Positions 6,815 to 46,204 of a stretch of 64,000 bases of DNA are shown here, piece after piece; the stretch's first letter is position 1; the number at the start of each line of letters is the position of its first letter. A program made the translations under genes and the position numbers. Below the pieces are notes generated by a model. The model was not told the origin of the DNA. It did not search any database and was given only the letters and a program-made list of their open reading frames with translations. Origin of the DNA: Minisyncoccota bacterium (lineage in GTDB: Bacteria; Patescibacteriota; Minisyncoccia; Phycocordibacterales; SBAW01); contig DASZWN010000001.1 of the NCBI GenBank assembly GCA_035546575.1, positions 119,254 through 183,253 of the forward strand, written 5' to 3'.

Positions 6815-6818
6815 AAGC

Positions 6819-29820: not shown

Positions 29821-29927
29821 CTTGCATAATTTTAAACCTTAGGTTATAGTCTTCTGGACTCTCGACCCGCGCCCTTGGCGGGGTAAACATAGGGTTGTCC
29901 ACGTCCCCTCGGGGACCAATAGAAACC

Positions 29928-30551: not shown

Positions 30552-30556
30552 ATAAT

Positions 30557-31354: not shown

Positions 31355-31355
31355 T

Positions 31356-31643: not shown

Positions 31644-31674
31644 ATTTATTTAGACCCAATCAAAAAGAAATCTT

Positions 31675-32523
31675 ATGAAACACTATCGACCATACACAAA
31701 ATCACGCCGTGGTATGACCACCATTACCTTCAAGGGTAAGCTCACGACCAATGAGCCGCACAAAGCTCTTGTACACGGCGGCAAACGCGATATGGGCCGC
31801 AATAATGCGGGCCGCATTTCGGTGCGCCACAAGGGCGGTGGACACAAGCGCATGTTCCGCGATGTGGACTTTTTCTACAACAAGCAGGTTCCGGCTCGCG
31901 TAGAGACTGTCGAGTACGATCCGAACCGCTCCGGCTTTATCGGCGTGCTTGCATATCGCGACGGCGAGCGCCGCTACGCACTCCTTCCGCAGTCGGTTAA
32001 AGTTGGCGACACTGTCGAGACTTCTGCTACCGCGCCTGCAACTCCAGGTAACCGCATGCCACTCAAGAATGTTCCGATCGGCGCGTTTGTCTACAACGTT
32101 GAGATTAAGCCGGGCAACGGTGCCAAGCTTGGCCGCGCTGCAGGTACGCACATCGAGGTTATCGCACGCGACGGCGGCTATGTAGACCTTAAGATGCCAT
32201 CGAGCGAGGTCCGTAAAGTCCTCGAGACCTGCTGGGCAACGCTCGGCGAGGTTTCAAACCCAGAGAACAAACTCATGAACATTGGTAAGGCAGGTCGCAG
32301 CCGCTGGCTCGGTATCCGCCCAACCGTGCGCGGTACTGCAATGAACCCGGTTGATCACCCATACGGCGGAGGCGAAGGCCGCCAAGGCCGCGGTACTCGC
32401 CGCGCCAAGTCTATGTGGGGCAAGCCGACAGGCAAGGGCCAGAAGTCTCGCCGCCCAAAGAAGTACTCCAACTACTTGATAGTTAGTCGAAGAAAGGTTG
32501 GTAAAAGAGGCGCGCAGCAATAA
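31675..32523 (+). CDS. rplB: 50S ribosomal protein L2
   Basis: GGGHKR..., GTAMNPVDHPYGGGEG motifs. Confidence 0.95.
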   Translation: MKHYRPYTKSRRGMTTITFKGKLTTNEPHKALVHGGKRDMGRNNAGRISVRHKGGGHKRMFRDVDFFYNKQVPARVETVEYDPNRSGFIGVLAYRDGERRYALLPQSVKVGDTVETSATAPATPGNRMPLKNVPIGAFVYNVEIKPGNGAKLGRAAGTHIEVIARDGGYVDLKMPSSEVRKVLETCWATLGEVSNPENKLMNIGKAGRSRWLGIRPTVRGTAMNPVDHPYGGGEGRQGRGTRRAKSMWGKPTGKGQKSRRPKKYSNYLIVSRRKVGKRGAQQ

Positions 32524-32531
32524 GTAGGCAA

Positions 32532-32551
32532 CCTGCCTGCCGGCAGGCAGG
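32532..32551. repeat. Palindromic element copy 4, a perfect 20-bp palindrome cctgcctgccggcaggcagg, intergenic just after rplB
   Basis: Perfect palindrome sharing its core with 1252, 2472 and 14472. Confidence 0.75.
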
Positions 32552-32582
32552 GCGCGGAGCCCAGCAGTAACTATAAAAAAGA

Positions 32583-32609
32583 GAAAAGGCGCCGAAGGGG
32601 CGCCTTTTG
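32583..32609. terminator. Bidirectional terminator (AAAAGGCGCC-gaagg-GGCGCCTTTT)
   Basis: A-run, 7-bp GC stem, T-run. Member of a three-copy terminator family with 38583 and 39133. Confidence 0.7.
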
Positions 32610-32634
32610 CAATAGCGGGGAAGCAGGCCTTAGC

Positions 32635-32829
32635 TTACTTCATCTGGATCTGCGGAACGGATACAAGCCTCGCGCGTGGCGAAGATTGCTGCTGTTGCGG
32701 AGTGACGTCGCGCCGAATTTGGTCGTCGGCGCAACCCGGGACACAATACAGGAAAGGTCCTCGTCTGGTGGGTTTGCCAAGAATTTGGCGAGTGCAGGTT
32801 GAGTTGTGACAAAACAACCTATGCGTCAT
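32635..32829 (-). CDS. Hypothetical small Cys-containing protein, 64 aa
   Basis: ORF track. CHNSTC and CVPGC motifs. Terminator on its 3' side. Weak call. Confidence 0.25.
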   Translation of the reverse strand: MTHRLFCHNSTCTRQILGKPTRRGPFLYCVPGCADDQIRRDVTPQQQQSSPRARLVSVPQIQMK

Positions 32830-33016
32830 TTCAGAATTCCTTCTGCTGCATCTGAAAACAAGATGAACTCTCAGCCTTTTCCCACCATACTCTCATATAT
32901 TTTATTTGGCAAGAATTTTCCGGTGCATAACGTAGAAATATTTTATTGGATCGCGCGTTGAAACTTGAAGGAAAATTAGTTACTCTTTGCAACAGATACG
33001 ATAGGAGAAACAATCC

Positions 33017-33238
33017 ATGTTCTACTTTTTTGCATTAGCGCTGGCTGCAGCCGCACTTCTTGTAATAGGCTATCTGTCGCGGGTTGCGACCGTGTTCGAG
33101 AAGATGGTTCAATATGAACGCAGTTGCGGCCGGAAGACTCACTGGGCACTCATTCTCCTTTATAGTCTTGTCCTAGTTGGGCTCATGTATGAAGGAGCTG
33201 ATATACGCATACCGCAGGTTAATCCTGCGAAGAAGTAA
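33017..33238 (+). CDS. Hypothetical small membrane protein, 73 aa
   Basis: Two TM helices. AT-rich upstream region. Terminator hairpin at 33245-33275. Confidence 0.35.
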   Translation: MFYFFALALAAAALLVIGYLSRVATVFEKMVQYERSCGRKTHWALILLYSLVLVGLMYEGADIRIPQVNPAKK

Positions 33239-33284
33239 AACGACGCCCCGGCAAAGTGCCGGGGTGATTTTCGCTCAGCCCTCA

Positions 33285-33524
33285 TTAATTGCGAGGGAGT
33301 TTTTTCTTCGGGACAATCTTGACCGCCTCCTCAAGCACTCCTCTGAATTGCTTCCTCGTGATACCTGGGCCGCCAGATTGCATTCGCCGCTGTAGAGGTG
33401 TCATATCCTTTTCGTCCACCACCTCCGGGTGTTTCTTCTTGTGGGCGAAGAACTCATCTGCGATCTTCTTTGCCACAGGCGATAGGGCGCCCTTAACCAC
33501 TCGCCGATCCCTTGCTTTCTTCAT
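33285..33524 (-). CDS. Hypothetical small basic protein, 79 aa
   Basis: Perfect SD GGAGGtacccc before the ATG at 33524. Confidence 0.5.
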   Translation of the reverse strand: MKKARDRRVVKGALSPVAKKIADEFFAHKKKHPEVVDEKDMTPLQRRMQSGGPGITRKQFRGVLEEAVKIVPKKKLPRN

Positions 33525-33641
33525 GGGGTACCTCCGTTTTGTTCAACTAAAGCCGAATATAGCACAATATTGACTCTTTTAATTTTTTCCAGCACCATTG
33601 CGCCAGCTTAGTTCGCCAAAACGTTCAACCAGGAGGACTCA

Positions 33642-34616
33642 ATGTCGAAGACAGACCAAATACGGCCGATGGTTATCGACTTGCCGCTCAAGTATCGCGG
33701 CAAAACGCGCGACACATATGAGGCCAAGTGGCCTGACCCAAACGACAAGCGCCGGCCGCCGCTCTTGATCGTGGCAAGCGACCGTATCTCGACGCATGAC
33801 GTCGTGCACAAGAGCATGATCCCAAAGAAGGGCGAGGTGCTCAATGCGCTAACGATCTTCTGGATCGTCGACGTGCTCGAGAAGCTCGGTATTGCTCACC
33901 ATCTCATTGCCTACGGCAAGAAGATCTATGATTACGTGCCGAAGCCGGACAGCGACCCCAAGGACGTACCGCTCCACCACCGAGCAATCGTAGTGAAGCA
34001 ACTCGATATAATTCTGGTCGAGTTTATCCTCCGGCAATTTCTGTGTGGGGGCTTGTGGAGCAAGCATTACAGTAAGGGTCTGGACCCTTACGGGCTCAGT
34101 ATCCCCGCAGGTCTTCCGCTCATGACGAACTTTGGCACGTTGGCAAAGTTTGCTGCACCCGTCTTCACTCCGACCAAGAAATCGGATGAAGAACATGATC
34201 CGCCGCTACTGAGCGAGGCGACTGCTCGGGAACATCCGGAGGCTCTTATGCTCAGCCGAAAAGTGTTCGATCGCGGCAGGCAACGTCTCCGTACGAGGGG
34301 AATCGAGCTCATCGACTCCAAGTTCGAGTTTGGGATCGACGAAGATGGTCAGGTGGTGCTCGCCGATGAGGTTCTCACGCCTGACTCAAGCCGCTTCGCA
34401 CTGCTCAGCGACATCAAGGAGGGGGAGAACCCGCCTTGGCTCGATAAGCAGATCGCTCGCGATTGGGCGGAAAAGCATTGGGGGCTTAACCCCAAAGAGC
34501 CTCTGGTATTTCCACCTCTTACGATCAGCGGCATCCGCAATACCTACGTCGATCTATTCGAGCAGATCGTCGGCATGAAGCTCAGTCAGTTCCAGCACGA
34601 ACGGCTCGACAACTAG
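33642..34616 (+). CDS. purC: Phosphoribosylaminoimidazole-succinocarboxamide (SAICAR) synthase
   Basis: YRGKTRDTYE, LLIVASDRISTHDVV, DSKFEFG, DEVLTPDSSRF motifs. SD GGAGG. Confidence 0.85.
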   Translation: MSKTDQIRPMVIDLPLKYRGKTRDTYEAKWPDPNDKRRPPLLIVASDRISTHDVVHKSMIPKKGEVLNALTIFWIVDVLEKLGIAHHLIAYGKKIYDYVPKPDSDPKDVPLHHRAIVVKQLDIILVEFILRQFLCGGLWSKHYSKGLDPYGLSIPAGLPLMTNFGTLAKFAAPVFTPTKKSDEEHDPPLLSEATAREHPEALMLSRKVFDRGRQRLRTRGIELIDSKFEFGIDEDGQVVLADEVLTPDSSRFALLSDIKEGENPPWLDKQIARDWAEKHWGLNPKEPLVFPPLTISGIRNTYVDLFEQIVGMKLSQFQHERLDN

Positions 34617-34632
34617 AGTTCCCAAGCAAACG

Positions 34633-34664
34633 CCCCGGCCGTTTACGGCCGGGGTTCTCTTTTT
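34633..34664 (+). terminator. Intrinsic terminator after purC (ccccggccg-ttta-cggccgggg + T-run)
   Basis: 9-bp stem. Confidence 0.7.
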
Positions 34665-34673
34665 GCCCTAAAT

Positions 34674-34702
34674 TTGACTCTTTTGGGCTTATCCTGTAGT
34701 AT
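34674..34702 (+). promoter_or_regulatory. Promoter TTGACT-17-TAGTAT upstream of rpsS
   Basis: Near-consensus -35 and -10 with a 17-nt spacer. Shares TTGACTCTTTT with the tuf and purC upstream regions. Confidence 0.6.
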
Positions 34703-34772
34703 CTCCTTACTTCCGTGCCGCAAGGTTTGAGCGCTCTCTGCTTAAACGGGCAGGGAATTTAATTTTGGAAAT

Positions 34773-35129
34773 ATGGCACGCAGCCTCAAAAAAGGACCAT
34801 ACGTAGACGCAAAGCTCCTCAAGAAGATTGAGGGCAAGAAAGCTCAGGGCTCTGAGCTTATTAAGACGTGGGCACGCCGCAGCCAGATCTCTCCGGAGAT
34901 GGTTGGCTTTAAGTTTGGCGTACACAACGGCAAGACGCACATTGAGGTACTTGTAAGCGAGGACATGGTCGGGCACCGCCTGGGCGAGTTCTCTCCTACA
35001 AAGAAGTTCCAGCGCCACGGAGGCAAGATGCAGAAGGAGATGGAGACCAAGGCTAAGGAGGCCGAGATCGCAGCAGCATCTGCAGCAAAGGCAGCTACCG
35101 ACACCAAGGGCGCCGCAGCAAAGAAATAA
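34773..35129 (+). CDS. rpsS: 30S ribosomal protein S19 (with C-terminal extension)
   Basis: SLKKGPYVD...HNGK..I.V...MVGH.LGEF. Confidence 0.95.
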
Positions 35130-35132
35130 TAT

Positions 35133-35507
35133 ATGGCTGACTCAACCGCATCACTTAAGAATTACCGCCAGTCGCCTCGCAAGGTGCGTCTTGTGGCTGA
35201 TCTTATCCGCGGCAAGTCGGCAGACCGCGCGCTCGCGCTTTTGAACACGCTCCCAAAGCGCGCGTCTGATCCGGTTGCCAAACTCCTCCTCTCGGCTATC
35301 GCAAATGCAAAGCAGGCGGCCCCGCAGTCGGAGCTCTATGTTTCGAGCATTCAGGTCAACGGCGGGATTGTCTTTAAGCGCTCGATGCCTCGCGCACGCG
35401 GTCGCGCATCGGCTATCCGCAAGCGCACCAGCCACATCACCTTGGCCCTCAGCCGCAAGGCTGAAAGTCAAAAAGCAAGAAGCGCTTCTTCGAAGGCCCA
35501 AAAATAA
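35133..35507 (+). CDS. rplV: 50S ribosomal protein L22
   Basis: L22 family sequence. Confidence 0.9.
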   Translation: MADSTASLKNYRQSPRKVRLVADLIRGKSADRALALLNTLPKRASDPVAKLLLSAIANAKQAAPQSELYVSSIQVNGGIVFKRSMPRARGRASAIRKRTSHITLALSRKAESQKARSASSKAQK

Positions 35508-35508
35508 T

Positions 35509-36183
35509 ATGTCTAAAGTTGTACACCCATTTGCACATCGGCTCGGTATCCTGCGTGACTGGCGTCATCGCTGGTTTGTGACGGGCCCTAAGTACCAGCA
35601 GTACCTCAAGGCCGACATTCTTTTGCGTGAGTACCTCCAAAAGGAGCTCCGCGGCATGTATATCGGCGGTATGGAGATTGAGCGCAACGAGAAGCAGCTC
35701 CGCGTTATCATCAAAACATCGCGCCCGGGCGTTATCATCGGTCGCAGCGGCGAGGGCTCTGCTAAAATGCGCGACAAGATCACCGCATTCCTCCGCAAGC
35801 ACAAACTCCCGGTTCCGGAGATCAAGCTCGATATCGAGGAGATCCGCTCACCAGAATCGAGCGCTGCTATTGTTGGCTACATGGTAGCCGAGGGTCTCGA
35901 AAAGCGCATGCCATTCCGCCGCGTACTCAAGCAGACTATCGAAAAGGTTATGGCAAACCGCGATGTTAAGGGTGTCCGTATCGGCCTCTCGGGCATGCTC
36001 GGCGGTGGCTCTATGTCCCGCACCGAGGAGCTCAAGAAGGGCCGTATTCCGCTGCAGACTTTCCGCTCTGATATCGACTTTGCTAAGGAGCGCGCAAACC
36101 TCCCGCTCGGCGTGATCGGTATTAAAGTGTGGATCTACCGCGGCGAGGTCTTTGCGGACGCGCCTAAAGAGAAGACCAAATAA
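35509..36183 (+). CDS. rpsC: 30S ribosomal protein S3
   Basis: MSKVVHPFAHRLGI... The ORF-track ORF 35275..36183 begins 78 codons upstream of the conserved S3 N-terminus; start set at the ATG at 35509. Confidence 0.9.
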   Translation: MSKVVHPFAHRLGILRDWRHRWFVTGPKYQQYLKADILLREYLQKELRGMYIGGMEIERNEKQLRVIIKTSRPGVIIGRSGEGSAKMRDKITAFLRKHKLPVPEIKLDIEEIRSPESSAAIVGYMVAEGLEKRMPFRRVLKQTIEKVMANRDVKGVRIGLSGMLGGGSMSRTEELKKGRIPLQTFRSDIDFAKERANLPLGVIGIKVWIYRGEVFADAPKEKTK

Positions 36184-36188
36184 ACTGT

Positions 36189-36611
36189 ATGTTGACTCCT
36201 AAGAAAGTAAAATTTAGAAAGTGGCACACCATGCGCCACAATGCCAAGAAGGGGAAGGTGGCTTCTCGCGGCATTACGGTTGCGTTTGGCTCGCACGGCC
36301 TCAAGGCAACGAGCCAGGCCCGCCTTCGCTCCAACCAGCTCGAAAGTGCTCGCAAGGTTATCGTCCGCTCGCTCGGCAAGACCGGCAAGATGTGGTTGCG
36401 CGTTTTCCCAGACAAGCCATTTACCCAGAAGCCGCCGGAAGTGAAGCTCGGCAAGGGTAAGGGCGACCCGGTTGGCTACGAAGTGGAGGTATGGCCAGGC
36501 CGCGTGCTCTTTGAGGTAGACGGCGTATCTGCCGCTATCGCATCCGAGACGCTCATCAAGGCAGGCAAGAAGCTCCCGCTCAAGACAAAGGTTGTCACCC
36601 GCGCGCATTAA
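36189..36611 (+). CDS. rplP: 50S ribosomal protein L16
   Basis: L16 family sequence. Confidence 0.95.
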   Translation: MLTPKKVKFRKWHTMRHNAKKGKVASRGITVAFGSHGLKATSQARLRSNQLESARKVIVRSLGKTGKMWLRVFPDKPFTQKPPEVKLGKGKGDPVGYEVEVWPGRVLFEVDGVSAAIASETLIKAGKKLPLKTKVVTRAH

Positions 36612-36618
36612 AATCCGT

Positions 36619-36816
36619 ATGGCTACTAAAAAAACAACACTAAAAAACCACACTCCAGAGGAACTCAACAAGCTCGCTCTCGATAAGCAGGAAGAGCTCC
36701 GGGTCTTGCGCTTTTCTGCTTCTGGTGGTAAAAACCACAATGTAAAGCAGACTAAAATGCTCCGCAAGCAGATTGCGCGTGCACTCACAGAGCTTAACGC
36801 CCGCCGCACCAAGTAA
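36619..36816 (+). CDS. rpmC: 50S ribosomal protein L29
   Basis: MATKK...EELNKLALDKQEELRVLRF...; start set at the internal ATG of the ORF-track ORF. Confidence 0.85.
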   Translation: MATKKTTLKNHTPEELNKLALDKQEELRVLRFSASGGKNHNVKQTKMLRKQIARALTELNARRTK

Positions 36817-36820
36817 ACCT

Positions 36821-37066
36821 ATGGAACCAAAAGTAATACATAAAAAGACGCTTCGCGGCACCGTAGTCTCCGACAAAATGCAGGAGACTGCGGTAGTTGC
36901 CGTGTCTCGCTACGTTAAGCACCCAAAGTACAAAAAGTATATGAAGAGCACCAAAAAGTACCATGCTCACAACCCAGGCAACCGCGCTAAGGAGGGGGAG
37001 ATGGTAACAATCCGCTCCTGCCGACCAATGTCTAAGACAAAGTCGTTCGAGATCGTGTTTGCATAA
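36821..37066 (+). CDS. rpsQ: 30S ribosomal protein S17
   Basis: TLRGTVVSDKMQETAVVAV.RYVKHPKY.K; start set at MEPKV. Confidence 0.85.
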   Translation: MEPKVIHKKTLRGTVVSDKMQETAVVAVSRYVKHPKYKKYMKSTKKYHAHNPGNRAKEGEMVTIRSCRPMSKTKSFEIVFA

Positions 37067-37071
37067 TTTTT

Positions 37072-37452
37072 ATGATCCAGCCACAAACATTAGTAGTGAT
37101 TGCAGATAACTCCGGCGGCAAGATCGGGCGCATTTTCAAAGTGCTCGGCTCATCGCACAAGCGCTATGCGGAGATCGGCGAGCTCGTAGTGCTCTCGGTA
37201 CAGGTTGCCGAGCCGCGCAAGGGTGTAAAGAAAAAGGATATTCTCCGCGGTGTGGTAGTGCGCCAGAAAAAGGCAATGCGCCGCAAAGACGGCTCGTACA
37301 TCCGCTTTGACGAGAACGCAGTCGTGATCCTTGAGACTGCAGGCAAAGACAAGAAGGAGCCTAAGGCGGGCCGCATCTTTGGTCCAATTCCGCGCGAGCT
37401 CCAGGAGCTTGGCTACCAGACAATCATCTCCCGTGCTCCGGAGGTTGTATAA
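37072..37452 (+). CDS. rplN: 50S ribosomal protein L14
   Basis: [17 protein letters not shown]... Confidence 0.95.
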
Positions 37453-37457
37453 ACACT

Positions 37458-37682
37458 ATGAACACTCTCCACATTAAAAAAGGCGATAGCGTTGTAGTGC
37501 TCTCTGGCAACGACAAAGGCAAGAGCGGCAAAGTGACCGCAGTGCTCCCAAAGCTCAACCAGGTGGTTGTTGAGGGTGTTGGTATGCGCAAAAAGCACGC
37601 AAAGCCTCGCCGCGAAGGCCAAAAGGGCCAGATCATCGATAAGCAGTTTCCAATCCACGCCAGCAATGTAGCGAAGAAGTAA
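37458..37682 (+). CDS. rplX: 50S ribosomal protein L24
   Basis: [20 protein letters not shown]. Confidence 0.9.
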
Positions 37683-37689
37683 ATCGTAT

Positions 37690-38241
37690 ATGTCTAAACT
37701 ACTTCAAGAACAACAGAAAACAGTATTTGCTGATCTCAAGGGCAACTTTGGATGGGTAAATGTCATGCAGACACCAAAGATCGAGAAGGTGGTTGTCTCG
37801 GTTGGTGTAGGCTCTACTAAAGACAAAAAGAAAGTGGAACTGATCGAGAACCGCCTTGCTACTATCACGGGCCAGAAGCCGGCTCCTCGCGCAGCTAAAA
37901 AGGCTATCGCCACGTTTAAGACTAGGCTGGGCGACAAGGTTGGCTACCAGGTTACGCTCCGCGGCAAGCGTGCAGAGGACTTTGTTAACCGCCTTATCCA
38001 CATTGCACTTCCTCGCACCAAGGACTTTAAGGGCATTCCGGTTACTGCTATCGACGAGATGGGCAACTACACGCTCGGCATCAAGGAGCACTCGGTGTTT
38101 GCAGAAACTGCAGACGAGGAGCTCAAAGACATCTTCGGCATGGCTATCACGGTTGTTACGACCGCAAAAAACAAGGACGAGGCAAAAGCATATCTCACAC
38201 ACCTCGGATTCCCCTTCAAAAAGGACCCGACGCAAAAATAA
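37690..38241 (+). CDS. rplE: 50S ribosomal protein L5
   Basis: L5 family sequence. Confidence 0.95.
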   Translation: MSKLLQEQQKTVFADLKGNFGWVNVMQTPKIEKVVVSVGVGSTKDKKKVELIENRLATITGQKPAPRAAKKAIATFKTRLGDKVGYQVTLRGKRAEDFVNRLIHIALPRTKDFKGIPVTAIDEMGNYTLGIKEHSVFAETADEELKDIFGMAITVVTTAKNKDEAKAYLTHLGFPFKKDPTQK

Positions 38242-38261
38242 TTTTTAGAAAATAGTTTGAC

Positions 38262-38293
38262 AAAGAGTGCTTAAAGGAGCACTCTTTTGTTTG
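38262..38293 (+). terminator. Intrinsic terminator after rplE (aaagagtgct-taaagg-agcactcttt + T-run)
   Basis: 10-bp perfect stem. Its position is unusual, in the middle of the normally contiguous spc operon. Confidence 0.7.
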
Positions 38294-38321
38294 GTGGTTC
38301 AACTAGGCGGAGGAATGAAGC

Positions 38322-38522
38322 ATGAAAGACGGGGAACATACTCAGGGTCAGCGGGGCAAACGCCCCATGTCCAAGCATGAGCGTGCGGTTGCATATGCGC
38401 TGAGCCAGGAGGGCCAGCGTGAAGCCCGGGGGTTTCAGAAAGATGTTGCTCGCCACCGGCACGACGAAGTAGTAACTGCTCTGGTGGGAGACTTCCGTCT
38501 CCGCCTCTTTTACAGGCATTAG
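38322..38522 (+). CDS. Hypothetical small protein, 66 aa
   Basis: SD GGCGGAGGA 7 nt upstream. Followed by the terminator cccgcg-tatcgctg-cgcggg + T-run at 38531-38567. Confidence 0.4.
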   Translation: MKDGEHTQGQRGKRPMSKHERAVAYALSQEGQREARGFQKDVARHRHDEVVTALVGDFRLRLFYRH

Positions 38523-38582
38523 GCCTCCTGGGTCCCGCGTATCGCTGCGCGGGGCCTTTCTTTTTATAAAATTGAGAAAAGT

Positions 38583-38611
38583 AAAAGGCGCTCCTTACGG
38601 GGCGCCTTTTT
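38583..38611. terminator. Bidirectional terminator (AAAAGGCGCtcc-ttac-ggGGCGCCTTTTT), family member 2
   Basis: On the 3' side of the minus gene 38610..39077. Near-identical core to 32583 and 39133, including a shared upstream AGTAAAAGGCGC. Confidence 0.7.
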
Positions 38612-39077
38612 AGAAAAATTCTCCTGCCTTGTACTCCTTCATCAGCTTCTGTGCTGTTTCTCTTTCTTCTTCGTCGTTGATTCGCTCTGCCCACTGTTCA
38701 GCCTCAGGAAGGTTGTCGTATACAAGAAGGGTCAGGAGTGTCGTAATCTGGTTCGGGTGGTCGTCGCCTTGGTATATCAAGGCCGCAACTGCGTTGAGAC
38801 GAGCTGCCTCCTTGTCTTTGTGCATCCAGATTGCACTGCTGATTGCATGATGATGCCAGAACCACAGTATCTCGAGACACCATTCGCGCTCCTCTTTTGG
38901 AAGTGCGCGCAGATTTGTACGACTGAGGATTTTTCGGACCTTATTGGTGAGTAGGAAAGGGTTTTCGTAATCCCACTCTCCAGCCTTAAATAGCCGCTGG
39001 TCTTCATCGATGTACGCACGATACAGGTCGCGGATAGTAGTGACTCCCGCCACCGCGTACGCCTCAAGAAGTGACAT
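38610..39077 (-). CDS. Hypothetical protein, 155 aa, inserted inside the spc operon
   Basis: ORF-track ORF. Sits between a promoter-like AT-rich region and a terminator. No recognisable family. Confidence 0.5.
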   Translation of the reverse strand: MSLLEAYAVAGVTTIRDLYRAYIDEDQRLFKAGEWDYENPFLLTNKVRKILSRTNLRALPKEEREWCLEILWFWHHHAISSAIWMHKDKEAARLNAVAALIYQGDDHPNQITTLLTLLVYDNLPEAEQWAERINDEEERETAQKLMKEYKAGEFF

Positions 39078-39132
39078 GTTGTCCTCCGTATTTCAAACCA
39101 ACCATCACTGTGTCATATCTGCGGAAAAAGTA

Positions 39133-39160
39133 AAAGGCGCCGGTGGAAGGGCGCCTTTCT
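39133..39160. terminator. Bidirectional terminator (AAAAGGCGCC-ggtggaag-GGCGCCTTTCT), family member 3
   Basis: On the 3' side of the minus gene 39175..39480. Confidence 0.65.
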
Positions 39161-39174
39161 GCATTCTTGGGCAG

Positions 39175-39480
39175 TCAGTCCAACTGCTCGACGAGCTTCT
39201 CAGCTGTCGCTTTATCAACACCGTGGATGACGAAGCACCCAACCAATGTCGAGCGTCCCGACTGAGCCTGCTTCTCCTGGATAAGTCGGAGGGCCTCCTC
39301 CGGGAGTCCCTTTGGGAGGGACCGTCCGGCGAAACGCACCTTCATGTCCTTCGCTCCTGCGAAGGCGAGGGCAAGGCTCCTTTCGGCAGCTGCCTTGACC
39401 TCGGGTGAAGCCGGATCTGCCCGGCCAGCCGCTAGGCGGACTGCAACTTGCCCAAGCGCCTCTGTACGAGGGTCGCTCAT
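39175..39480 (-). CDS. Hypothetical protein, 101 aa
   Basis: ORF-track ORF with its own terminator. No recognisable family. Confidence 0.45.
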   Translation of the reverse strand: MSDPRTEALGQVAVRLAAGRADPASPEVKAAAERSLALAFAGAKDMKVRFAGRSLPKGLPEEALRLIQEKQAQSGRSTLVGCFVIHGVDKATAEKLVEQLD

Positions 39481-39612
39481 CTCGATTTCTCCTTGTTTCG
39501 AAGAACGCTTAACCAGACTATATTATACCATAGGATATAGATAAAAGTCAAGTGATAGAAATGGCCCTCAAAATAGGGTTGGTACATAAGGGTGGGGCAG
39601 GAGGGCGGGTAT

Positions 39613-39641
39613 TTGCATTTCTGCCTGGGCTACGGTATAGT
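39613..39641 (+). promoter_or_regulatory. Promoter TTGCAT-17-TATAGT that restarts transcription of rpsZ-rpsH-rplF-... after the insertion
   Basis: Good -35 and -10 with a 17-nt spacer. Followed by a gcccatatgggc palindrome plus T6 (possible attenuator) and a leader of about 120 nt. Confidence 0.55.
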
Positions 39642-39775
39642 CTCTCCACGCCCATATGGGCTCCTTTTTTCTGTCAGGTGCCGCTTAGTCTTAATTGGCG
39701 AGGCAAACCCACAGAATCACCCTTCGACAGGTTTGAGCATGGGGCTTAGCCGAGGGATCGAAGGAACAAAAGTAT

Positions 39776-39961
39776 ATGGCAAAAAAGTCTACAGTAGCGC
39801 GCTCAAACCGTGCCCCGAAATTCAAGTCGAGGGTTGTTAATCGTTGCTTCCGCTGCGGCCGCAAGCGCTCATTTATGCGCGACTTCGGCATGTGCCGCGC
39901 CTGCTTCCGCGAGGCAGCGCTTGAGGGCCTTATACCTGGCGTTCGCAAATCATCTTGGTAA
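39776..39961 (+). CDS. rpsZ: 30S ribosomal protein S14, type Z (zinc-binding, 61 aa)
   Basis: [23 protein letters not shown] with CxxC...CxxC. Confidence 0.9.
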
Positions 39962-39970
39962 TCATCTTTT

Positions 39971-40357
39971 ATGGTAACTGACCCTATCGCAGATTTTTTG
40001 ATCCGACTTCGCAACGCGCTTATGGCGAATAAGGAGTCTGTCGTCGTACCGTCCTCTAAGATGACCCTCGCTCTTTCCGAGGTGCTCTCTCGCGAGGGAT
40101 ACATCGGCGCTGTCGACAAAAAGGTCAAAAACAACTCACTCACGATTGCGCTCACCTACAAAAACGGCCGTCCATCTATATTGGGCAGCAAGCGCATCAG
40201 CAAGCCGTCGCGCCGCATGTACATCGGAGTACACGATGTAAAGCCGGTTAAACGCGGCCACGGCCTCCTTGTACTCTCAACCCCGGCAGGCATTCTCACA
40301 GGCAAAGAAGCGAAGGAGAAGCATGTCGGCGGGGAAGCGCTGTTCGAAATCTGGTAG
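39971..40357 (+). CDS. rpsH: 30S ribosomal protein S8
   Basis: MVTDPIADFLIRLRNA... Confidence 0.95.
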   Translation: MVTDPIADFLIRLRNALMANKESVVVPSSKMTLALSEVLSREGYIGAVDKKVKNNSLTIALTYKNGRPSILGSKRISKPSRRMYIGVHDVKPVKRGHGLLVLSTPAGILTGKEAKEKHVGGEALFEIW

Positions 40358-40389
40358 TTCGATATGACTCACCACAAGTAATCATTCGT

Positions 40390-40923
40390 ATGTCACGCCT
40401 TGCTAAAAGACCAATAACGCTCCCCGCTAAAACCGAGATAACATTCTCCGGCGATTTGCTGACGGTTAAGGGGCCTAAAGGCACGCTCACGCGCCAAGGT
40501 CATCGCCTTATCACTATCGAGAAAGGGGAGGAAGGCGTGCAGGTGTCGATGAAGAAGGACACGCTTGAGGCCCGCGCGCTTGTCGGCAGTTTTGCTTCGC
40601 ATGTGCGCAACATGATCGAGGGCGTCAACGCCGGCTTCAGCAAAAAGCTGATCATCGAGGGCGTCGGCTACAAGTGGGACGTTGCGGGTAAGACACTCAA
40701 TTTGGCACTCGGCTTTTCGCACCCTGTCAAAATGTCGATCCCCGAAGGCCTCACCGTAACGATCGAGAAGGGAGTACTCTCAGTTGCGGGATTTGATAAA
40801 GAACTCGTGGGCCAGTTTGCCGCAAACGTCCGCGCGCTCAAGGTGCCGGAGCCGTACAAGGGCAAGGGTATCCGCTACAGCGACGAAGTGATCCGCCGCA
40901 AGCAGGGCAAGAAGGCGGCGTAA
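40390..40923 (+). CDS. rplF: 50S ribosomal protein L6
   Basis: L6 family sequence. Confidence 0.95.
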   Translation: MSRLAKRPITLPAKTEITFSGDLLTVKGPKGTLTRQGHRLITIEKGEEGVQVSMKKDTLEARALVGSFASHVRNMIEGVNAGFSKKLIIEGVGYKWDVAGKTLNLALGFSHPVKMSIPEGLTVTIEKGVLSVAGFDKELVGQFAANVRALKVPEPYKGKGIRYSDEVIRRKQGKKAA

Positions 40924-40956
40924 TCCCGAGCTTGCGAGGAACAATACAAAGAACGT

Positions 40957-41301
40957 ATGAAAAACAACATTAAAACTCAAGGCCGTGAACGCCGCCACAA
41001 CCGCATTCGCTCTCGCGTCGTGGGTTCAGCTGCGCGCCCACGCCTCACCGTATACAAATCAAACCGCTACCTCCATGCCCAGATTATCGACGATGCTGAG
41101 GGTAAAACCCTTGTCTCTGGTACGACACAGGGAGTGAAGGCCACGAAGATGGACGCTGCAAAGAAACTCGGCGCTGATATGGCAAAGCGCGCACAGGAGG
41201 CGGGGATCAAGGCGGTTGTATTTGATCGCGGCGGCTTCCGCTACACTGGTCGCGTAGCCATGCTCGCAACGGCAGCGCGCGAAGCAGGACTCAACTTTTA
41301 A
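40957..41301 (+). CDS. rplR: 50S ribosomal protein L18
   Basis: L18 family sequence. Confidence 0.9.
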   Translation: MKNNIKTQGRERRHNRIRSRVVGSAARPRLTVYKSNRYLHAQIIDDAEGKTLVSGTTQGVKATKMDAAKKLGADMAKRAQEAGIKAVVFDRGGFRYTGRVAMLATAAREAGLNF

Positions 41302-41307
41302 TTACGT

Positions 41308-41916
41308 ATGGACGATATGACTGAACAAAAGAATGATATGGAAGTGGTAGCACAAGAGGCTGCGGTTGAGACTGCTACCGAAAACGCTGCACCGGCAGCA
41401 GACACCCGCGCTCCTCGCGAGCGTCGTGGTCGTACGGGCGGTCGTGGCGGACGCCCAGGCAGCAATCGTGCGCGTCCGGAGCGCAAGAGCGAGTACGACC
41501 AGCGCATCATCAATATCCGCCGAGTGTCTCGTGTGACTACTGGCGGTCGCCGCTTCACCTTTAGCGTTTCGGTTATTATCGGCAATAAAAAAGGCAAGGT
41601 GGGTGTGGGTGTCGGCAAAGCGGGGGACACTACGCTCGCTATCGACAAGGCGGTGCGCGATGCAAAAAAGCACATGATCACCGTGGCGCTGCGCAAAGAC
41701 TCTTCTATTGCGCACGACGTGCTCGCAAAGTTTAACGCGTCTCGCGTTTCGCTCACTCCGGCGCACGGCCGCGGTCTTGTTGCAGGCTCATCGGTACGCC
41801 CGGTACTCGAACTCGCAGGTATCACCAACATCGTTGCCAAGGTGCATTCGGGCAGCAAGAACGGCCTCAACAATGCGCGCGCAGCAATCGAGGCACTCAA
41901 ATCTCTTAAGGCATAA
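41308..41916 (+). CDS. rpsE: 30S ribosomal protein S5 (with Arg/Gly-rich N-terminal extension)
   Basis: S5 core sequence IINIRRVSRVTTGGRRFTFS... Confidence 0.9.
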   Translation: MDDMTEQKNDMEVVAQEAAVETATENAAPAADTRAPRERRGRTGGRGGRPGSNRARPERKSEYDQRIINIRRVSRVTTGGRRFTFSVSVIIGNKKGKVGVGVGKAGDTTLAIDKAVRDAKKHMITVALRKDSSIAHDVLAKFNASRVSLTPAHGRGLVAGSSVRPVLELAGITNIVAKVHSGSKNGLNNARAAIEALKSLKA

Positions 41917-41926
41917 AACACCCACC

Positions 41927-42346
41927 ATGCAACTCAACGAACTTAAACGGGCAACCCCGAACAAAAAAGAAAAGCGCGTAGGCCGCGGAGGCGGTCGCGG
42001 CAAAACCTCTGGTCGCGGTACCAAGGGCCAGAAGGCGCGCGCGGGCCACAGCATCATGCCGGCAATCCGCGAGCAGCTGAAGAAACTTCCGAAGCGCCGC
42101 GGCTACAGCTTTAAGAGCATCCAGGCAAAGTCGTCGGTAGTTAACCTCTCCTTGCTCGAAAAGGTGTTTCAGGCAGGTGATACCATTAACCCAAAGATCC
42201 TCATGGATCGCGGCGTCGTGCGTGACACGGGCGCGGTCAAGATCTTGGGCGATGGCGAACTCACTAAAAAATTTACGATCTCCGGGTGCGCGATCTCTGC
42301 AAGCGCTCGGGCAAAAGTAGAGAAGGCAGGCGGCTCGGTTTCCTAA
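41927..42346 (+). CDS. rplO: 50S ribosomal protein L15
   Basis: MQLNELKRATPNKKEKRVGRGGGRGKTSGRG...; start set at the internal ATG at 41927. It directly follows rpsE; no L30 gene lies between them. Confidence 0.9.
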   Translation: MQLNELKRATPNKKEKRVGRGGGRGKTSGRGTKGQKARAGHSIMPAIREQLKKLPKRRGYSFKSIQAKSSVVNLSLLEKVFQAGDTINPKILMDRGVVRDTGAVKILGDGELTKKFTISGCAISASARAKVEKAGGSVS

Positions 42347-42358
42347 CACCACTCGGAT

Positions 42359-43633
42359 ATGAATACCTTTATACAACGACTCACGCTTCTCATCGCAGAC
42401 AAGTCGCTGCGCAATCGGCTATTGTTCGTAGTCGGCGCGCTCGCTGTATTCCGCGTACTCGCGGCTATTCCGATTCCGGGCGTTAACGCGGCCCAGCTGC
42501 AAAACTTTTTTGCTAACAATCAGTTTTTCGGTCTCCTCAACCTCTTCTCGGGCGGCGGCCTTTCGAGCCTCTCCATTGTGATGCTCGGCGTAGCGCCGTA
42601 CATCACGGCCTCTATCATCATGCAGCTCCTTACGATGATGATTCCGGCGCTCAAACAGCTCTACCAGGAAGAGGGGGAAGCGGGTCGCCAGCGCTTTAGC
42701 CAATACACCCGCATGCTCGCGCTTCCGATAGCGGTGCTCCAGGGTGTTAGCTTTTTGCTTATCCTCGAGCGCCAGGGCGTACTCACGGTACTTTCGCCAT
42801 TTAACTTTGCGGCAAACTTGCTTGTGATAACGGCAGGCTCACTCCTCCTTATGTGGATCGGCGAGCTTATCTCGGAGTTCGGTCTCGGCAACGGCGTATC
42901 GCTCATCATTTTTGCCGGCATTGTGTCCCGCCTTCCAGAAACTATCAGCCAGAGCATCTTCGCATTCGACTCAACGCAGGTTCCGGTATATCTCGGCTTC
43001 CTTGCGGGGGCTATCGCAGTTATCGCGGCAGTCGTCGTTATCAGCGAGGCTGAGCGTCCGGTGCCGGTAACCTACGCCAAGCGCGTTCGCGGTATGAAGT
43101 TTATCTCCGGCGGCGGTTCAACCTACCTTCCGCTTCGCCTTAACCAGGCAGGCGTTATCCCGATTATCTTTGCGCTCTCACTCCTCCTTATCCCGCAGAT
43201 GTTCGCGAGTTTCTTCTCAACCTCAAGCAACGCAATCCTTTCCGGCATCTCGGCTTCAATACTCAGCACCTTCCAAAACCTGACCATCTACGGCAGCCTC
43301 TACTTTGTCTTCGTGTTCCTCTTTACCTACTTCTACACTGCAGTTACGTTCGACCCGAACCAGATCTCGGAAAATCTGCAGAAGAACGGCGCGTTTATCC
43401 CGGGTGTGCGCCCAGGCATTTCCACCTCTGAGCATCTCGCACGCATCATTACGCGCATCACGTTTGTGGGCGCGCTCTTCCTCGCGATCATCGCGGTGCT
43501 CCCGATTATCATGCAGTCGATAACGGGTATCACCACGCTCGCGCTGGGCGGTACTGCGCTCCTCATCGTGGTTCAGGTGATCCTCGACCTCGCGCGTCGC
43601 ATTGACGCGCAGATCTCAATCCGCGAGTATTAA
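42359..43633 (+). CDS. secY: Protein translocase subunit SecY
   Basis: 10-TM SecY family with conserved segments. Confidence 0.95.
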   Translation: MNTFIQRLTLLIADKSLRNRLLFVVGALAVFRVLAAIPIPGVNAAQLQNFFANNQFFGLLNLFSGGGLSSLSIVMLGVAPYITASIIMQLLTMMIPALKQLYQEEGEAGRQRFSQYTRMLALPIAVLQGVSFLLILERQGVLTVLSPFNFAANLLVITAGSLLLMWIGELISEFGLGNGVSLIIFAGIVSRLPETISQSIFAFDSTQVPVYLGFLAGAIAVIAAVVVISEAERPVPVTYAKRVRGMKFISGGGSTYLPLRLNQAGVIPIIFALSLLLIPQMFASFFSTSSNAILSGISASILSTFQNLTIYGSLYFVFVFLFTYFYTAVTFDPNQISENLQKNGAFIPGVRPGISTSEHLARIITRITFVGALFLAIIAVLPIIMQSITGITTLALGGTALLIVVQVILDLARRIDAQISIREY

Positions 43634-43636
43634 TAG

Positions 43637-44218
43637 ATGGAGAAGCAGGGCAAACTCGTTCTCGTTATTGGCCCAACTGGCAGCGGAAAGAGTGCGCTCA
43701 TGGCACATGCGCGGCAAGCCGTGCCTGGCCTCGTGTTTCCGATATCGTGCACTACTCGCGCGATGCGACCCGGCGAAGTCGAAGGAGAAAATTATTTTTT
43801 TGTAACTCCAGAGGAGTTTGAACGCCGCGTTAAAGCGGGCGATTTTCTAGAGTGGAAGCATACCGACGAAAAGCGCTACGGCACCCTTAAATCACAGATT
43901 CTTACGCCGCTCGCAGAAGGTAAGACCGTCATTCGAGAGGTTGAGATACGCGGCGCGCGCGATATTTTGGGCGGCCTCGTCCCGCGCGATCTCGTACACA
44001 CTATATATATCGACGGCGGTTCGTGGGAGCAGCTTGAGGCGCGCATTTTAAGACGTGCTTCCATGGGAGAGGTCGAGCTTGCATCACGCCGCACCCGCTA
44101 TGCGGAGGAGTCGGTTTTTAAGAACGAAGCGGATGTGGTGATAGAAAATACGGAGGGCAAGCTGGAAGAGGCAAAACAAGAGTTCGAGAAAGCTATCCGG
44201 GCTATCATGGAAGCGTAA
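43637..44218 (+). CDS. gmk: Guanylate kinase
   Basis: GPTGSGKSAL P-loop; RPGEVEGENYFFV. Confidence 0.85.
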   Translation: MEKQGKLVLVIGPTGSGKSALMAHARQAVPGLVFPISCTTRAMRPGEVEGENYFFVTPEEFERRVKAGDFLEWKHTDEKRYGTLKSQILTPLAEGKTVIREVEIRGARDILGGLVPRDLVHTIYIDGGSWEQLEARILRRASMGEVELASRRTRYAEESVFKNEADVVIENTEGKLEEAKQEFEKAIRAIMEA

Positions 44219-44238
44219 TATAGTTTAAAATACCTAGC

Positions 44239-44832
44239 GTGAATCAACTTACCGTAATCTTTTTAGGGCCGCAAGGGAGTGGAAAGGGCACACACGCAAA
44301 TATGTTTCAGGAGGACCTCAAGCGGCTCGACGCCGGTCGTCCCATCGTTCACTTTGAGATGGGCAAAAATCTGCGCGACTTGGCTTCCGGCAACTCGTAC
44401 ACGGGGAGACTGCTCCAAGAAGTAATCAGCCGCGGAGAGCTGGTACCGTTTAACATCAGCAGCAGCGTGCTCTCGCAATATCTCATCAGCGCCATGCAAG
44501 GCAACGAACATCTTATCATCGACGGCTTTCCCCGCAGCGAAACACAGATGGACGTTGTAGACACCACCATGCAATTTTATAAGCGCGAGTCTCCAACCGT
44601 CGTGCACATCAATATTTCCGATGAAGAAGGGCTTAAGCGCCTCCTCAAGCGCGGCCGCTCCGACGATACCGAGGACAATATTCGCAGACGTCTTGCCTGG
44701 ACTCGTGCTGAGTGGGATAAAATCCGCAAACGACTAGACGCAAATCCAATGTACAAAGTACTCGAGATAGATGGCGACCACAGTATCGAGGACGTACATG
44801 CCGATATTCTCGCCAAATTAGGTTTAGCATGA
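44239..44832 (+). CDS. adk: Adenylate kinase
   Basis: GPQGSGKGT P-loop; IDGFPR. Confidence 0.9.
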   Translation: MNQLTVIFLGPQGSGKGTHANMFQEDLKRLDAGRPIVHFEMGKNLRDLASGNSYTGRLLQEVISRGELVPFNISSSVLSQYLISAMQGNEHLIIDGFPRSETQMDVVDTTMQFYKRESPTVVHINISDEEGLKRLLKRGRSDDTEDNIRRRLAWTRAEWDKIRKRLDANPMYKVLEIDGDHSIEDVHADILAKLGLA

Positions 44833-45590
44833 TAGCAAAAACACAAAGCGAAATAAAAAATCTGCGCGAAGCAGGGAAGCGCATGGCTGAGGTGGTGCGC
44901 GAGGTGCTTGCTGCGGTCAAGCCGGGAGTTTCTTCTATGGAGCTTGAGCGTATCGCACGCGAGGCAACCAAACGGGTTGATGCTGTGCCATCGTACTTAG
45001 GCTATGGCGTAAAAGGGGAAAACATATATCCGGCAGCACTCTGTGTTTCTATCAACGACGATATTGCGCATAGTCCGCCCACTCCAGATAAAATTTTAAA
45101 AAAGGGAGATGTGGTCTCGATCGACTTCGGTCTCAACTATAAGGGCGCGTTTATGGATACTGCCTACACGATTGCCGTGGGCGAGGTAGACAGCAAAGCA
45201 AAAAATCTTATTGCTGGCACTGAAGCCGCGCTTGCGGTTGGTATAGATGCTGCGCGTGTCGGAGGCAAAACTGGCGACATTGGTGCGGCAGTTGAGGCAG
45301 TAGCAAAGCAATACAAACTCGACGTCGTGCGCGACTTACGCGGTCACGGCGTTGGCAAGGCAGTGCACGAGGCACCAAATATTCCAAACTTTGGCACTAA
45401 AGGCAAAGGAGTAGAGATGGTAGAGGGCTTGGTGATTGCGATCGAACCGATTTTCGCAGAAGGCTCCGGTGAGATGGTAGACAAGGGCGACGGATTTACC
45501 TACACGACCAAAGACGGCTCGCGCGCCGCGCATTTTGAGCACACGGTGCTTATCACCAAAGACGGTCCGGAGATTTTAACGCTCTTGTAA
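44829..45590 (+). CDS. map: Methionine aminopeptidase, type I
   Basis: Pita-bread fold sequence with metal-ligand residues (D..D..H..E..E). Confidence 0.9.
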   Translation: MIAKTQSEIKNLREAGKRMAEVVREVLAAVKPGVSSMELERIAREATKRVDAVPSYLGYGVKGENIYPAALCVSINDDIAHSPPTPDKILKKGDVVSIDFGLNYKGAFMDTAYTIAVGEVDSKAKNLIAGTEAALAVGIDAARVGGKTGDIGAAVEAVAKQYKLDVVRDLRGHGVGKAVHEAPNIPNFGTKGKGVEMVEGLVIAIEPIFAEGSGEMVDKGDGFTYTTKDGSRAAHFEHTVLITKDGPEILTLL

Positions 45591-45619
45591 AAACTCCCGC
45601 ACTATTGTAGAGTGCTGCC

Positions 45620-46204
45620 ATGCAGCATCCTAAAGAGGAGAAGACATTCGTGCTTATAAAACCCGATGGGGTCCGTAAGGGCCTGGTGGGTGAGATTATC
45701 AAGCGCTTTGAGCAGCGCGACCTTAAGGTCGTGGCGCTCGAAATGTTTGAGCCATCGCGCGCCGAGATGGATCAACATTATCCAAAAGACGAAAAGTGGC
45801 TGACCCGCATCGGCGACAAGACCGCCGCAACCTACGAGAAGTACGGTTACGATATCAAAAAAGATTTTGGCACGACCAACCGTCTTTCGATCGGCAAAGA
45901 AGTACGCAAATGGCTCATCACGTTCATGACCTCGGCGCCGATGGTTAAGATGGTGGTACAGGGCGTGCATTCGGTAGATATGGTCCGCAAAATCGTGGGG
46001 CCTACGATGCCATACCTAGCTGAGATGGGCACCATCCGTGGCGATTACTCCGCAGATTCGGCCATAAGCGCAAATATGGAGAAACGCGCGGTGTTTAACC
46101 TGGTCCATGCAAGCGAGACTCCCGAGGAGGCGCGTCACGAGATCAATCATTGGTTTGGTAAAAAGAACATCTTTCACTACAAGCGTTTTGGTATTGATGA
46201 ATAA
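45620..46204 (+). CDS. ndk: Nucleoside diphosphate kinase (with insertion)
   Basis: EKTFVLIKPDGVRKGLVGEIIKRFE...GPTMPY...GTIRGDY. Confidence 0.85.
   Translation: MQHPKEEKTFVLIKPDGVRKGLVGEIIKRFEQRDLKVVALEMFEPSRAEMDQHYPKDEKWLTRIGDKTAATYEKYGYDIKKDFGTTNRLSIGKEVRKWLITFMTSAPMVKMVVQGVHSVDMVRKIVGPTMPYLAEMGTIRGDYSADSAISANMEKRAVFNLVHASETPEEARHEINHWFGKKNIFHYKRFGIDE

Follow-up and report, generated by a model that had tools for sequence, protein, structure and literature searches.

A probable lineage-specific operon boundary that gains accessory genes within the ribosomal-protein cluster of a Minisyncoccota bacterium

The stretch of DNA considered here, referred to as the window, comprises 64,000 nucleotides from a Minisyncoccota bacterium (contig DASZWN010000001.1, assembly GCA_035546575.1) and carries on its plus strand a ribosomal-protein cluster with tuf and rpsJ through secY. 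Within this cluster, 1534 bp lie between rplE (37690-38241), the gene for ribosomal protein L5, and rpsZ (39776-39961), the gene for a zinc-type S14. This insertion had been proposed to consist of mobile gene cassettes. The evidence presented here argues that it is probably the filling of a lineage-specific operon boundary, which gains accessory genes, and not a mobile cassette. Three junctions of the cluster are expanded in relatives, the content of the gaps turns over, and the insertion is followed by a conserved promoter and a conserved leader RNA with covariation. The general pattern is known from inter-operon insertions and accessory-gene hot spots; in this case the boundaries are lineage-specific in position and the turnover is very high.

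Gaps were measured for every pair of adjacent ribosomal-protein genes in 160 loci, namely 80 GTDB species-representative loci from related Paceibacteria of the Candidate Phyla Radiation (CPR) and 80 independent metagenome contigs. The L5|S14 gap was scored in 65 genome loci and 45 metagenome loci, and S10|L3 was not scorable in the metagenome set. The best relatives by L5, with 60-86% identity, are metagenome-assembled genomes (MAGs) labelled Paceibacterota, Adlerbacteria, Kaiserbacteria or Parcubacteria, and many MAGs among the L5 relatives, from one bulk submission, are mislabelled 'Saccharibacteria'. The closest relative (L002/L091) is 86% identical in L5.

Only three junctions are expanded in the 80 species representatives: S10|L3 (median gap 382 bp), L2|S19 (median 851 bp; more than 300 bp in 42 of 46) and L5|S14 (median 1234 bp, range 35-7751; more than 300 bp in 54 of 65 and more than 1 kb in 34). 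The remaining 17 junctions have medians of at most 51 bp, with only four gaps above 300 bp among approximately 1000, and the S14|S8 junction is tight in all relatives. The metagenome set gives a similar picture, with medians of 968 bp at L5|S14 (range 83-3445; more than 300 bp in 37 of 45), 534 bp at L2|S19 and at most 91 bp at those of the other 17 that were scored. The window shows all three gaps (S10|L3, 800 bp; L2|S19, 2249 bp; L5|S14, 1534 bp), and the 1.5-kb insertion is therefore one case of a clade-wide, site-specific feature. Fixed core flanks with differing content, and neighbouring intervals that are not expanded, characterize an accessory-gene hot spot, and both are found at rplE|rpsZ. 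A nearly empty site of 163 bp occurs in the same sub-clade, in L010, where the rpsZ promoter starts about 20 nt past the rplE region.

The content of the L5|S14 gaps is highly variable. All-against-all BLASTP of the 185 gap open reading frames (ORFs) of at least 45 aa left 147 as singletons, and the few shared ORFs join close relatives. Pfam searches of the 104 gap ORFs of at least 100 aa returned a mixture of unrelated families, among them sigma/anti-sigma factors (sigma-70 with DUF5667), PIF1 helicase, MFS transporters, Cas1, aromatic lyase, FMN reductase, IMP cyclohydrolase, thioredoxin and MerR. Of the 37 families in the relatives' gaps, the 25 most frequent include neither an integrase nor a transposase. 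Gap ORFs of at least 80 aa lie antisense to the cluster in 40% of cases. A defence island was also considered and was rejected, since among the 104 ORFs only Cas1 (one locus) and PIF1/RecD-like proteins (two loci) were found. Domains of IMP cyclohydrolase and AICARFT occur in the rplE|rpsZ gaps of other relatives, and purine-pathway genes are recurrent in the slots.

The ORFs, hairpins, promoter and palindrome of the original prediction were all present at, or within two bases of, the positions it had given. Apart from the GGCGCC hairpins described further below, the features of the rplE|rpsZ slot are as follows.

37690-38241, plus strand: rplE (L5), last gene of the rpsS..rplE unit and left anchor of the slot; relatives 60-86% identical.
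38262-38287, plus strand: rplE terminator hairpin AAAGAGTGCT..AGCACTCTTT followed by TGTTT (-16.3 kcal/mol, z = -3.8).
38322-38522, plus strand: orf66, an orphan with a GGAGGA Shine-Dalgarno sequence 8 nt upstream.
38530-38567, plus strand: orf66 terminator, a hairpin at 38530-38557 with a 12-bp GC-rich stem, then TTTCTTTTT (-22.7 kcal/mol).
38610-39077, minus strand: orf155, an accessory gene with a GGAGGA Shine-Dalgarno sequence and a TPR-like all-helical fold.
39175-39480, minus strand: orf101, an orphan with an AAGGAG Shine-Dalgarno sequence.
39522-39551, minus strand: promoter TTGACT-18-TGnTATAAT, strong and of sigma-70 type (11/12 plus TG).
39612-39641, plus strand: promoter TTTGCA-18-TATAGT of rpsZ-rpsH-rplF..., right boundary of the variable slot.

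The proposed insertion was borne out, in that non-conserved DNA breaks the canonical rplE-rpsN adjacency: tblastn gave no match for orf66, orf155 or orf101 in the 160 related loci. It had also been argued that conservation of the inserted genes in all relatives would speak against a cassette; the genes are not conserved, whereas the insertion site is. Nothing significant was found for the three ORFs in Pfam, NCBIfam, PADLOC or PHROGs scans. A test for a compositional anomaly found none, the G+C content being 0.527 in the insert and 0.530 in the window. No direct or inverted repeats bound the insert and no direct repeats flank single genes in the repeat search, and there is no recombinase among the window ORFs from 28000 to 46000. 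The idea of mobile gene cassettes thus finds no support, given the absence of flanking direct repeats, the absence of integrase and transposase from the listed Pfam families, and a G+C content equal to that of the genome; furthermore, nearly all relatives have an open junction here, and what fills it differs from one to the next.

The three ORFs differ in how well they can be placed. In searches of 5.8 billion clustered proteins orf66 found only itself, and orf101 found only itself both there and in a full HMMER search over 1.84 billion representatives. The codon score of orf101 (+0.16) is the highest of its six frames and the ORF was also called in an independent Logan assembly. The score of orf66 is ambiguous (+0.10 vs +0.14 for an antisense frame) and its coding status is uncertain. 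The closest relative, L002, has the same rplE terminator (flank 79% identical), an orf66 terminator that is 92% identical over 25 nt and, between the same rplE and downstream terminators, a colinear ORF of 67-68 aa at the place of orf66, with flanks 79-92% identical. No protein similarity was found between orf66 and this colinear ORF, and a comparison of the L002 positional counterparts with orf66 and orf101 gave nothing alike beyond a five-residue match. The rplE|rpsZ gap of L002 (L002:4263-5559) holds two terminators with a common core, CCGCGCG..CGCGCGGGG, one of which is the orthologue of the orf66 terminator.

The remaining ORF, orf155, belongs to an unannotated family of about 155 aa that is found only in Patescibacteria (proteins P0001-P0015) and has invariant His/Asp-rich motifs, WFWHHHAIS and DHPNQIT. 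Its fold is confidently TPR-like of the peptide-binding type, a helix-turn-helix repeat stack superposable on TPR domains. Against the PDB, a sequence-profile search found nothing and Foldseek gave no match below E = 0.07. The promoter at 39522-39551 drives orf101 and probably orf155 as well.

These data also bear on whether the inserted genes belong at this site as working parts of the ribosomal operon, for example as ribosome-associated or assembly factors. The conservation and peptide-binding type of fold of the orf155 family, the positional counterpart of orf66 in the closest relative and the recurrence of purC, in three to four genomes, within the rplB|rpsS slot can be cited in favor of this explanation. 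However, orf155 and orf101 are encoded on the opposite strand and have a promoter and terminators to themselves, the 160 related loci hold none of the three ORFs, orf101 and orf66 are without homologues, and the homologues of orf155 occur in unrelated contexts: after rpoD, in an integrase/toxin-antitoxin island (one genome) and beside a His_Phos_1 histidine phosphatase (two genomes). Membership of the operon is thus highly improbable.

An assembly or binning artefact, in which the ribosomal cluster of a MAG would have been fused with foreign DNA, has even less to recommend it and is barely credible. The source is indeed a MAG. The Logan contig SRR12170516_1561288 (L089, 1629 nt, run SRR12170516) breaks near both ends of the insert, as is seen at strain-variable regions, but it was assembled independently and has the same order of the rplE end, orf66, orf155 and orf101. 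The G+C content of the insert is the genome average, expansion of the same two junctions recurs in more than 100 independent assemblies that stem from many projects, and both flanks are continuous with conserved regulatory elements. The breaks in this contig fall at both slot edges, inside rplE and near the leader, a pattern that strain-level variation in the slot or its flanks would give.

Repeated near-identical terminators were the basis of the cassette proposal. Hairpins with the arms AAAAGGCGC..GCGCCTTT(T) were found at three sites in the window, against 0.00 expected from 100 dinucleotide shuffles.

32584-32608, unstranded: T1, GGCGCC-type hairpin 60 nt after rplB, terminator of the rplC..rplB unit.
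38583-38610, minus strand: T2, bidirectional terminator that ends orf155, the stop codon of which abuts the stem (-17.5 kcal/mol, z = -4.2).
39132-39159, minus strand: T3, terminator that ends orf101, 15 nt past its stop codon (-17.1 kcal/mol).

All three have the properties of intrinsic terminators, with 9-10 perfect pairs, loops of 5-10 nt and folding energies of -17.1 to -18.8 kcal/mol (z = -3.3 to -4.3). The minus strand carries the better T-tract in each case (tails TTTTCTCTTTTT, TTTTACTTTTCT and TTTTACTTTTT for T1, T2 and T3). In Rfam only sub-threshold, terminator-like matches were found for the hairpins, with T3 weakly resembling a terminator-type ctRNA. Eleven strong perfect-stem terminators occur in the 64 kb, and the GGCGCC core is present in three of them, all within two slots.

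It could be argued from this family that short genes travel with, or are captured beside, a AAAAGGCGCC..GGCGCCTTTT element, either as mobile cassettes or as a terminator module resembling repetitive extragenic palindromes (REP) or miniature inverted-repeat transposable elements (MITE). Three copies in two slots against zero expected fit such a module, as do the 33 nt that T2 and T3 share at 79% identity, including the flank AAAAGTAAAAGGCGC, and the 18 nt that T1 and T3 share at 83%. Terminators within a locus also share a 6-mer stem core more often than those of different loci (6.0% vs 3.0%, p = 0.013), an excess which therefore indicates a mild genome-specific terminator 'dialect'. Nevertheless, a hairpin of the same type stands at the same place after rplB in L009 and L014, with no others of this kind in 1.06 Mb of relatives; a similar GGCGCC hairpin precedes purC at position 129 of L091, a locus that does not reach rplB. 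Because its position after rplB is conserved in three to four relatives, T1 is an ordinary operon terminator.

The third family member is not tied to an orphan gene. T1 adjoins only ORFs that look non-coding: those at 32635-32829 and 32630-32812 on the minus strand have no coding signal, and the former, a Cys-rich ORF of 64 aa, was rejected on codon statistics as a third orphan gene with a terminator. The suggested search for further copies found none in the rest of the window or in roughly 7 kb of additional sequence of this organism, except for one looser relative at 13801. Moreover, direct repeats and target duplications are absent, no integrase or transposase is among the listed Pfam families, the hairpin stands at the 3' end only, as for any terminator, and loops and inner stems differ. 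A mobile module is therefore improbable. T2 and T3 may be local copies of one another, but nothing beyond their 3'-terminal position links them to gene mobility, and their evident job is to halt minus-strand transcripts from the 39551-39522 promoter before these enter rplE in antisense.

The right boundary of the slot is formed by elements that are independent of its content. A promoter that would restart expression of rpsZ-rpsH-rplF had been predicted at this point, and its position is kept in at least 23 relatives, where the spacing between the -35/-10 pair and the leader hairpin is unchanged. The final 150 nt or so before rpsZ show 73-92% DNA identity in more than 20 relatives, regardless of what lies upstream. 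The palindrome and T6 downstream of the promoter, previously taken for a stand-alone attenuator-like element, proved to be the first hairpin of a conserved, covarying leader RNA.

39648-39721, plus strand: leader RNA, about 75 nt, conserved and covarying.
39650-39661, plus strand: P1 hairpin, palindrome GCCCATATGGGC, then T6 at 39665-39670.
39669-39673 with 39712-39716, plus strand: outer stem of P2, UUCUG/CAGAA, from the leader alignment.
A39676-G-G-U-G / C39704-A-A-A-C-C, plus strand: internal loop of P2, which resembles the S8 site in helix 21 of 16S ribosomal RNA (rRNA).
39721-39764, plus strand: P3 hairpin CCUUCGA...UCGAAGG from the minimum-free-energy fold, which covers the rpsZ Shine-Dalgarno sequence GAAGGA at 39760-39765.
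39776-40357, plus strand: rpsZ (zinc-type S14, 61 aa) and rpsH (S8), first genes of the restarted unit.

The leader consists of P1 (AGCCCnnnnGGGCU), a connecting stretch (CCUUUUUU) and P2, which has the form UUCUG-nn-AGGU-S[hairpin]S-A-N-ACC-nn-CAGAA followed by AUCAU. It was found by nhmmer in the gaps of 22 relatives. A covariance model detects it in 25 loci, once in each, invariably on the plus strand and shortly before rpsZ, with nothing credible elsewhere in 1.13 Mb. With the hand-written structure 90% of cells are paired, as compared with 28-48% in slid controls. Double changes occur at seven pairs, and none of 500 shuffles was as good; the closing pair of the inner helix (599-639 equivalent) is G-C in 13 sequences and C-G in nine. 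RNAalifold recovers the same P2. No Rfam family matches the leader at gathering or E-value thresholds. In the place of P3, most relatives have an ACUCCC/GGGAGU hairpin over GGAG.

The S8 site of helix 21 comprises A595, the 596-644 pair, G597-C643, U598, A640 and the invariant A642, and U641 or an isosteric base makes a (G597-C643)-U641 triple (PMC4176348). The leader loop A-G-G-U / A-N-A-C-C maps onto A595, A596, G597, U598 / A640, U641, A642, C643, U644, with A39707 as the equivalent of A642, and the E. coli sequence UUAAGUC...GAUACUGG was confirmed as 16S rRNA sequence. Columns A31, G32-C85, G33-C84, U34, A81 and A83 of the leader alignment are invariant in 23 of 23 sequences, as is looked for in the loop of an S8 site. 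The leader also lies where an S8 leader would be sought, 50-110 nt before rpsZ, which is followed by rpsH; in the window rpsH (39971-40357), the gene for S8, is the second gene of the unit. Judged from the sequence, regulation through this leader is most likely exerted by S8.

In E. coli, S8 autoregulates the spc operon (Cerretti et al., 1988; Merianos et al., 2004; summarized in PMC3616713 and PMC4176348). In both systems the S8 site of helix 21 is copied by an asymmetric internal loop in an mRNA helix, which precedes the S8 gene and lies near a ribosome-binding site. Whereas the E. coli site overlaps the start of rplE, the present one is a 5' leader upstream of rpsZ and past a promoter of its own; it also adds the P1 hairpin with its U-tract and a G.A/UUA-bulge hairpin. 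The 596-644 pair, which is A-U in E. coli and C-G in Thermus (PMC4176348), has G-C as its equivalent in this leader, and position 641 is variable. By the title of PMC3616713, the known E. coli element is restricted to Gammaproteobacteria.

The other two expanded junctions of the window are organized in a similar manner.

29125-29924, plus strand: rpsJ|rplC slot, with a 111-nt mimic of 23S rRNA helices H67-H69 and the rplC promoter and leader.
29694-29804, plus strand: the 23S H67-H69 mimic (domain IV), 111 nt, matching Rfam large-subunit (LSU) positions 1856-2001 with 52-59 bits.
29821-29924, plus strand: rplC promoter TTGCAT-17-TATAGT and leader GGACUCUC...GUCCCCUCGGGGACCAAUAGA, conserved.
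32524-34772, unstranded: rplB|rpsS slot, with orf73 (plus strand), orf79 (minus strand) and a purC-like gene at 33642-34616 (plus strand).
34674-34702, plus strand: rpsS promoter TTGACT-17-TAGTAT, then a structured leader.
34703-34772, plus strand: rpsS leader, about 60 nt, a long irregular hairpin.

The rpsS leader (CCGUGCCG-CAAGG-UUUGAGC-GCUCUCU-GCUCAAA-CGGGCAGGG) shows compensatory changes at 10 of 17 pairs in 13 sequences and matches no Rfam family. The rplC promoter and leader (GGACUCUC..AUAGGGUUGUCCACGUCCCCUCGGGGACCAAUAGA) are also present in seven relatives (L001, L010, L012-L015 and L020). In the 23S mimic the H69 hairpin GGCCGUAACUAUAACGGCC is letter-perfect and H70/71 is deleted; the mimic begins just past a promoter-like TTTTGA-17-TACACT, and a strong hairpin, GGGGGTGGAGG..CCTCCACCCC+TTTTT, lies directly 3' of it. 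A diverged copy of the mimic, with a compensatory stem change, occurs in L020. The mimic may act as an L-protein-dependent attenuator of rplC-rplB, or it may be a small RNA in its own right. The purC-like (SAICAR synthetase) gene of the rplB|rpsS gap is also present in three to four relatives (L002, L091, L020) with 59-73% identity.

On the proposed mechanism, the S10-spc cluster would be split into the units rpsJ | rplC-rplB | rpsS-rplE | rpsZ-rpsH-rplF..., every one of which would restart from a sigma-70-type promoter of its own and with a structured leader RNA that is conserved. The DNA from a terminator to the following promoter would be selectively neutral space with essential conserved genes on either side, and this slot would gain and lose accessory or orphan genes over evolutionary time, presumably by recombination through the conserved flanks. 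Positions 38242-39611 would be its present filling, with orf66 downstream of rplE and with orf101 and then orf155 as a minus-strand pair under a strong promoter of their own that diverges from the rpsZ promoter. As an intrinsic terminator stands after each gene, transcription would not run antisense into rplE. Expression of rpsZ onward would start at 39612-39641 independently of the slot content, and the spaces between units would tolerate insertion because downstream expression is independent of read-through. Free S8 may bind the helix-21-like loop of P2; the P3 hairpin, which would hide the rpsZ Shine-Dalgarno sequence, adjoins this site, and bound S8 may thereby repress translation.

Several observations weigh against this interpretation of the slot and its leader. 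T2 and T3 have 15 identical bases across flank and stem, a likeness which exceeds generic terminator shape, and all three GGCGCC hairpins stand in two slots; copying of a module could account for this. No pair of strains that differ only in the slot was found, the best relative being 86% identical in L5. The chief weakness of the S8 site is that the equivalent of position 641 is A, U or G and not a fixed U. Furthermore, the leader is limited to closer relatives (approximately 70% L5 identity or more), and distant genomes with the same gap must therefore use something else.

The same elements have also been considered in a bolder manner. The three gaps could be nurseries or landing pads for new genes, strongly transcribed and accessible to recombination, with leaders that mimic rRNA and insulate the output of the cluster, although this is rather unlikely. 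It is similarly doubtful that orf101 and orf66 are lineage-specific ORFs that arose or were captured here and were made safe by locally copied GGCGCC terminators. An insulating role shared by the S8-like leader before rpsZ, the covarying hairpin before rpsS and the 23S H69 mimic before rplC is no less tentative and not to be expected. The reading of the slot as a lineage-specific operon boundary that gains accessory genes is preferred.

Inter-operon insertions have been described for the gammaproteobacterial ribosomal-protein cluster, where, as here, accessory genes are found only at operon boundaries and operon-internal genes are contiguous (PMC6735719, PMC8046335). In contrast to that cluster, the boundaries found here, rpsJ|rplC, rplB|rpsS and rplE|rpsZ, lie at points that are classically inside the S10 and spc operons, and the slots are filled in most genomes of the clade, with content that differs between nearly all species representatives. 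Work by Oliveira et al. in Nat Commun (2017) is said to describe gene hot spots as fixed intervals between core genes with varying accessory content, many of them reportedly without recognisable mobile-element genes. The slots resemble such flexible-genome hot spots in having conserved core flanks and different accessory genes in each genome; they differ in that the present comparison is between species and genera and not within species, and in that the flanks are ribosomal-protein genes.

A likeness to integron gene cassettes can also be seen, in that short and mostly orphan genes stand in a row with an imperfect palindrome after each. Unlike in integrons, however, there is no integrase, attI or attC-type architecture in the slot, its genes lie on both strands with their own promoters, and the palindromes, with their GC stems and U-tracts, are intrinsic terminators that have no outer core sites in common beyond A/T tracts. 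The original cassette idea is thus deflated to ordinary terminators and no cassette system.

Ribosomal-protein genes usually count as the part of a bacterial genome with the highest synteny, and their clusters are treated as the most rigid and vertically inherited, serving as the backbone of CPR phylogenomics and contig binning. In a large CPR class, three defined break points of the cluster fill with fast-changing accessory genes; no description of break points at these junctions was found in the CPR/Patescibacteria literature. They mark the real operon boundaries of the lineage and alter how synteny, assembly breaks and 'contamination' are to be read in Paceibacteria MAGs. They also provide three candidate autoregulatory leader RNAs, one of them a putative mimic of the S8 site that is placed differently from that of E. 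coli; no ribosomal-protein regulation has been described for the group in the literature checked. If these organisms become genetically tractable, the slots could be useful as natural 'neutral sites' beside essential genes.

Some further features of the window can be recorded. Approximately 400 bp past the rplB terminator (32609-33016) are without a credible ORF and have the lowest G+C content of the region (0.43-0.44), and a promoter-like site lies on the minus strand at 32912-32884. Between rpsE and rplO, rpmD (L30) is apparently absent. L4 (30557-31354) has a long Ala/Lys-rich C-terminal extension of about 60 aa, and S19 (34773-35129) has an Ala/Lys-rich tail. A transfer-messenger RNA (tmRNA) gene is located at 58306-58678 on the minus strand (Rfam, 81 bits), for which ARAGORN gives the tag peptide AKSVSSPYFSVNDLSLATARA.

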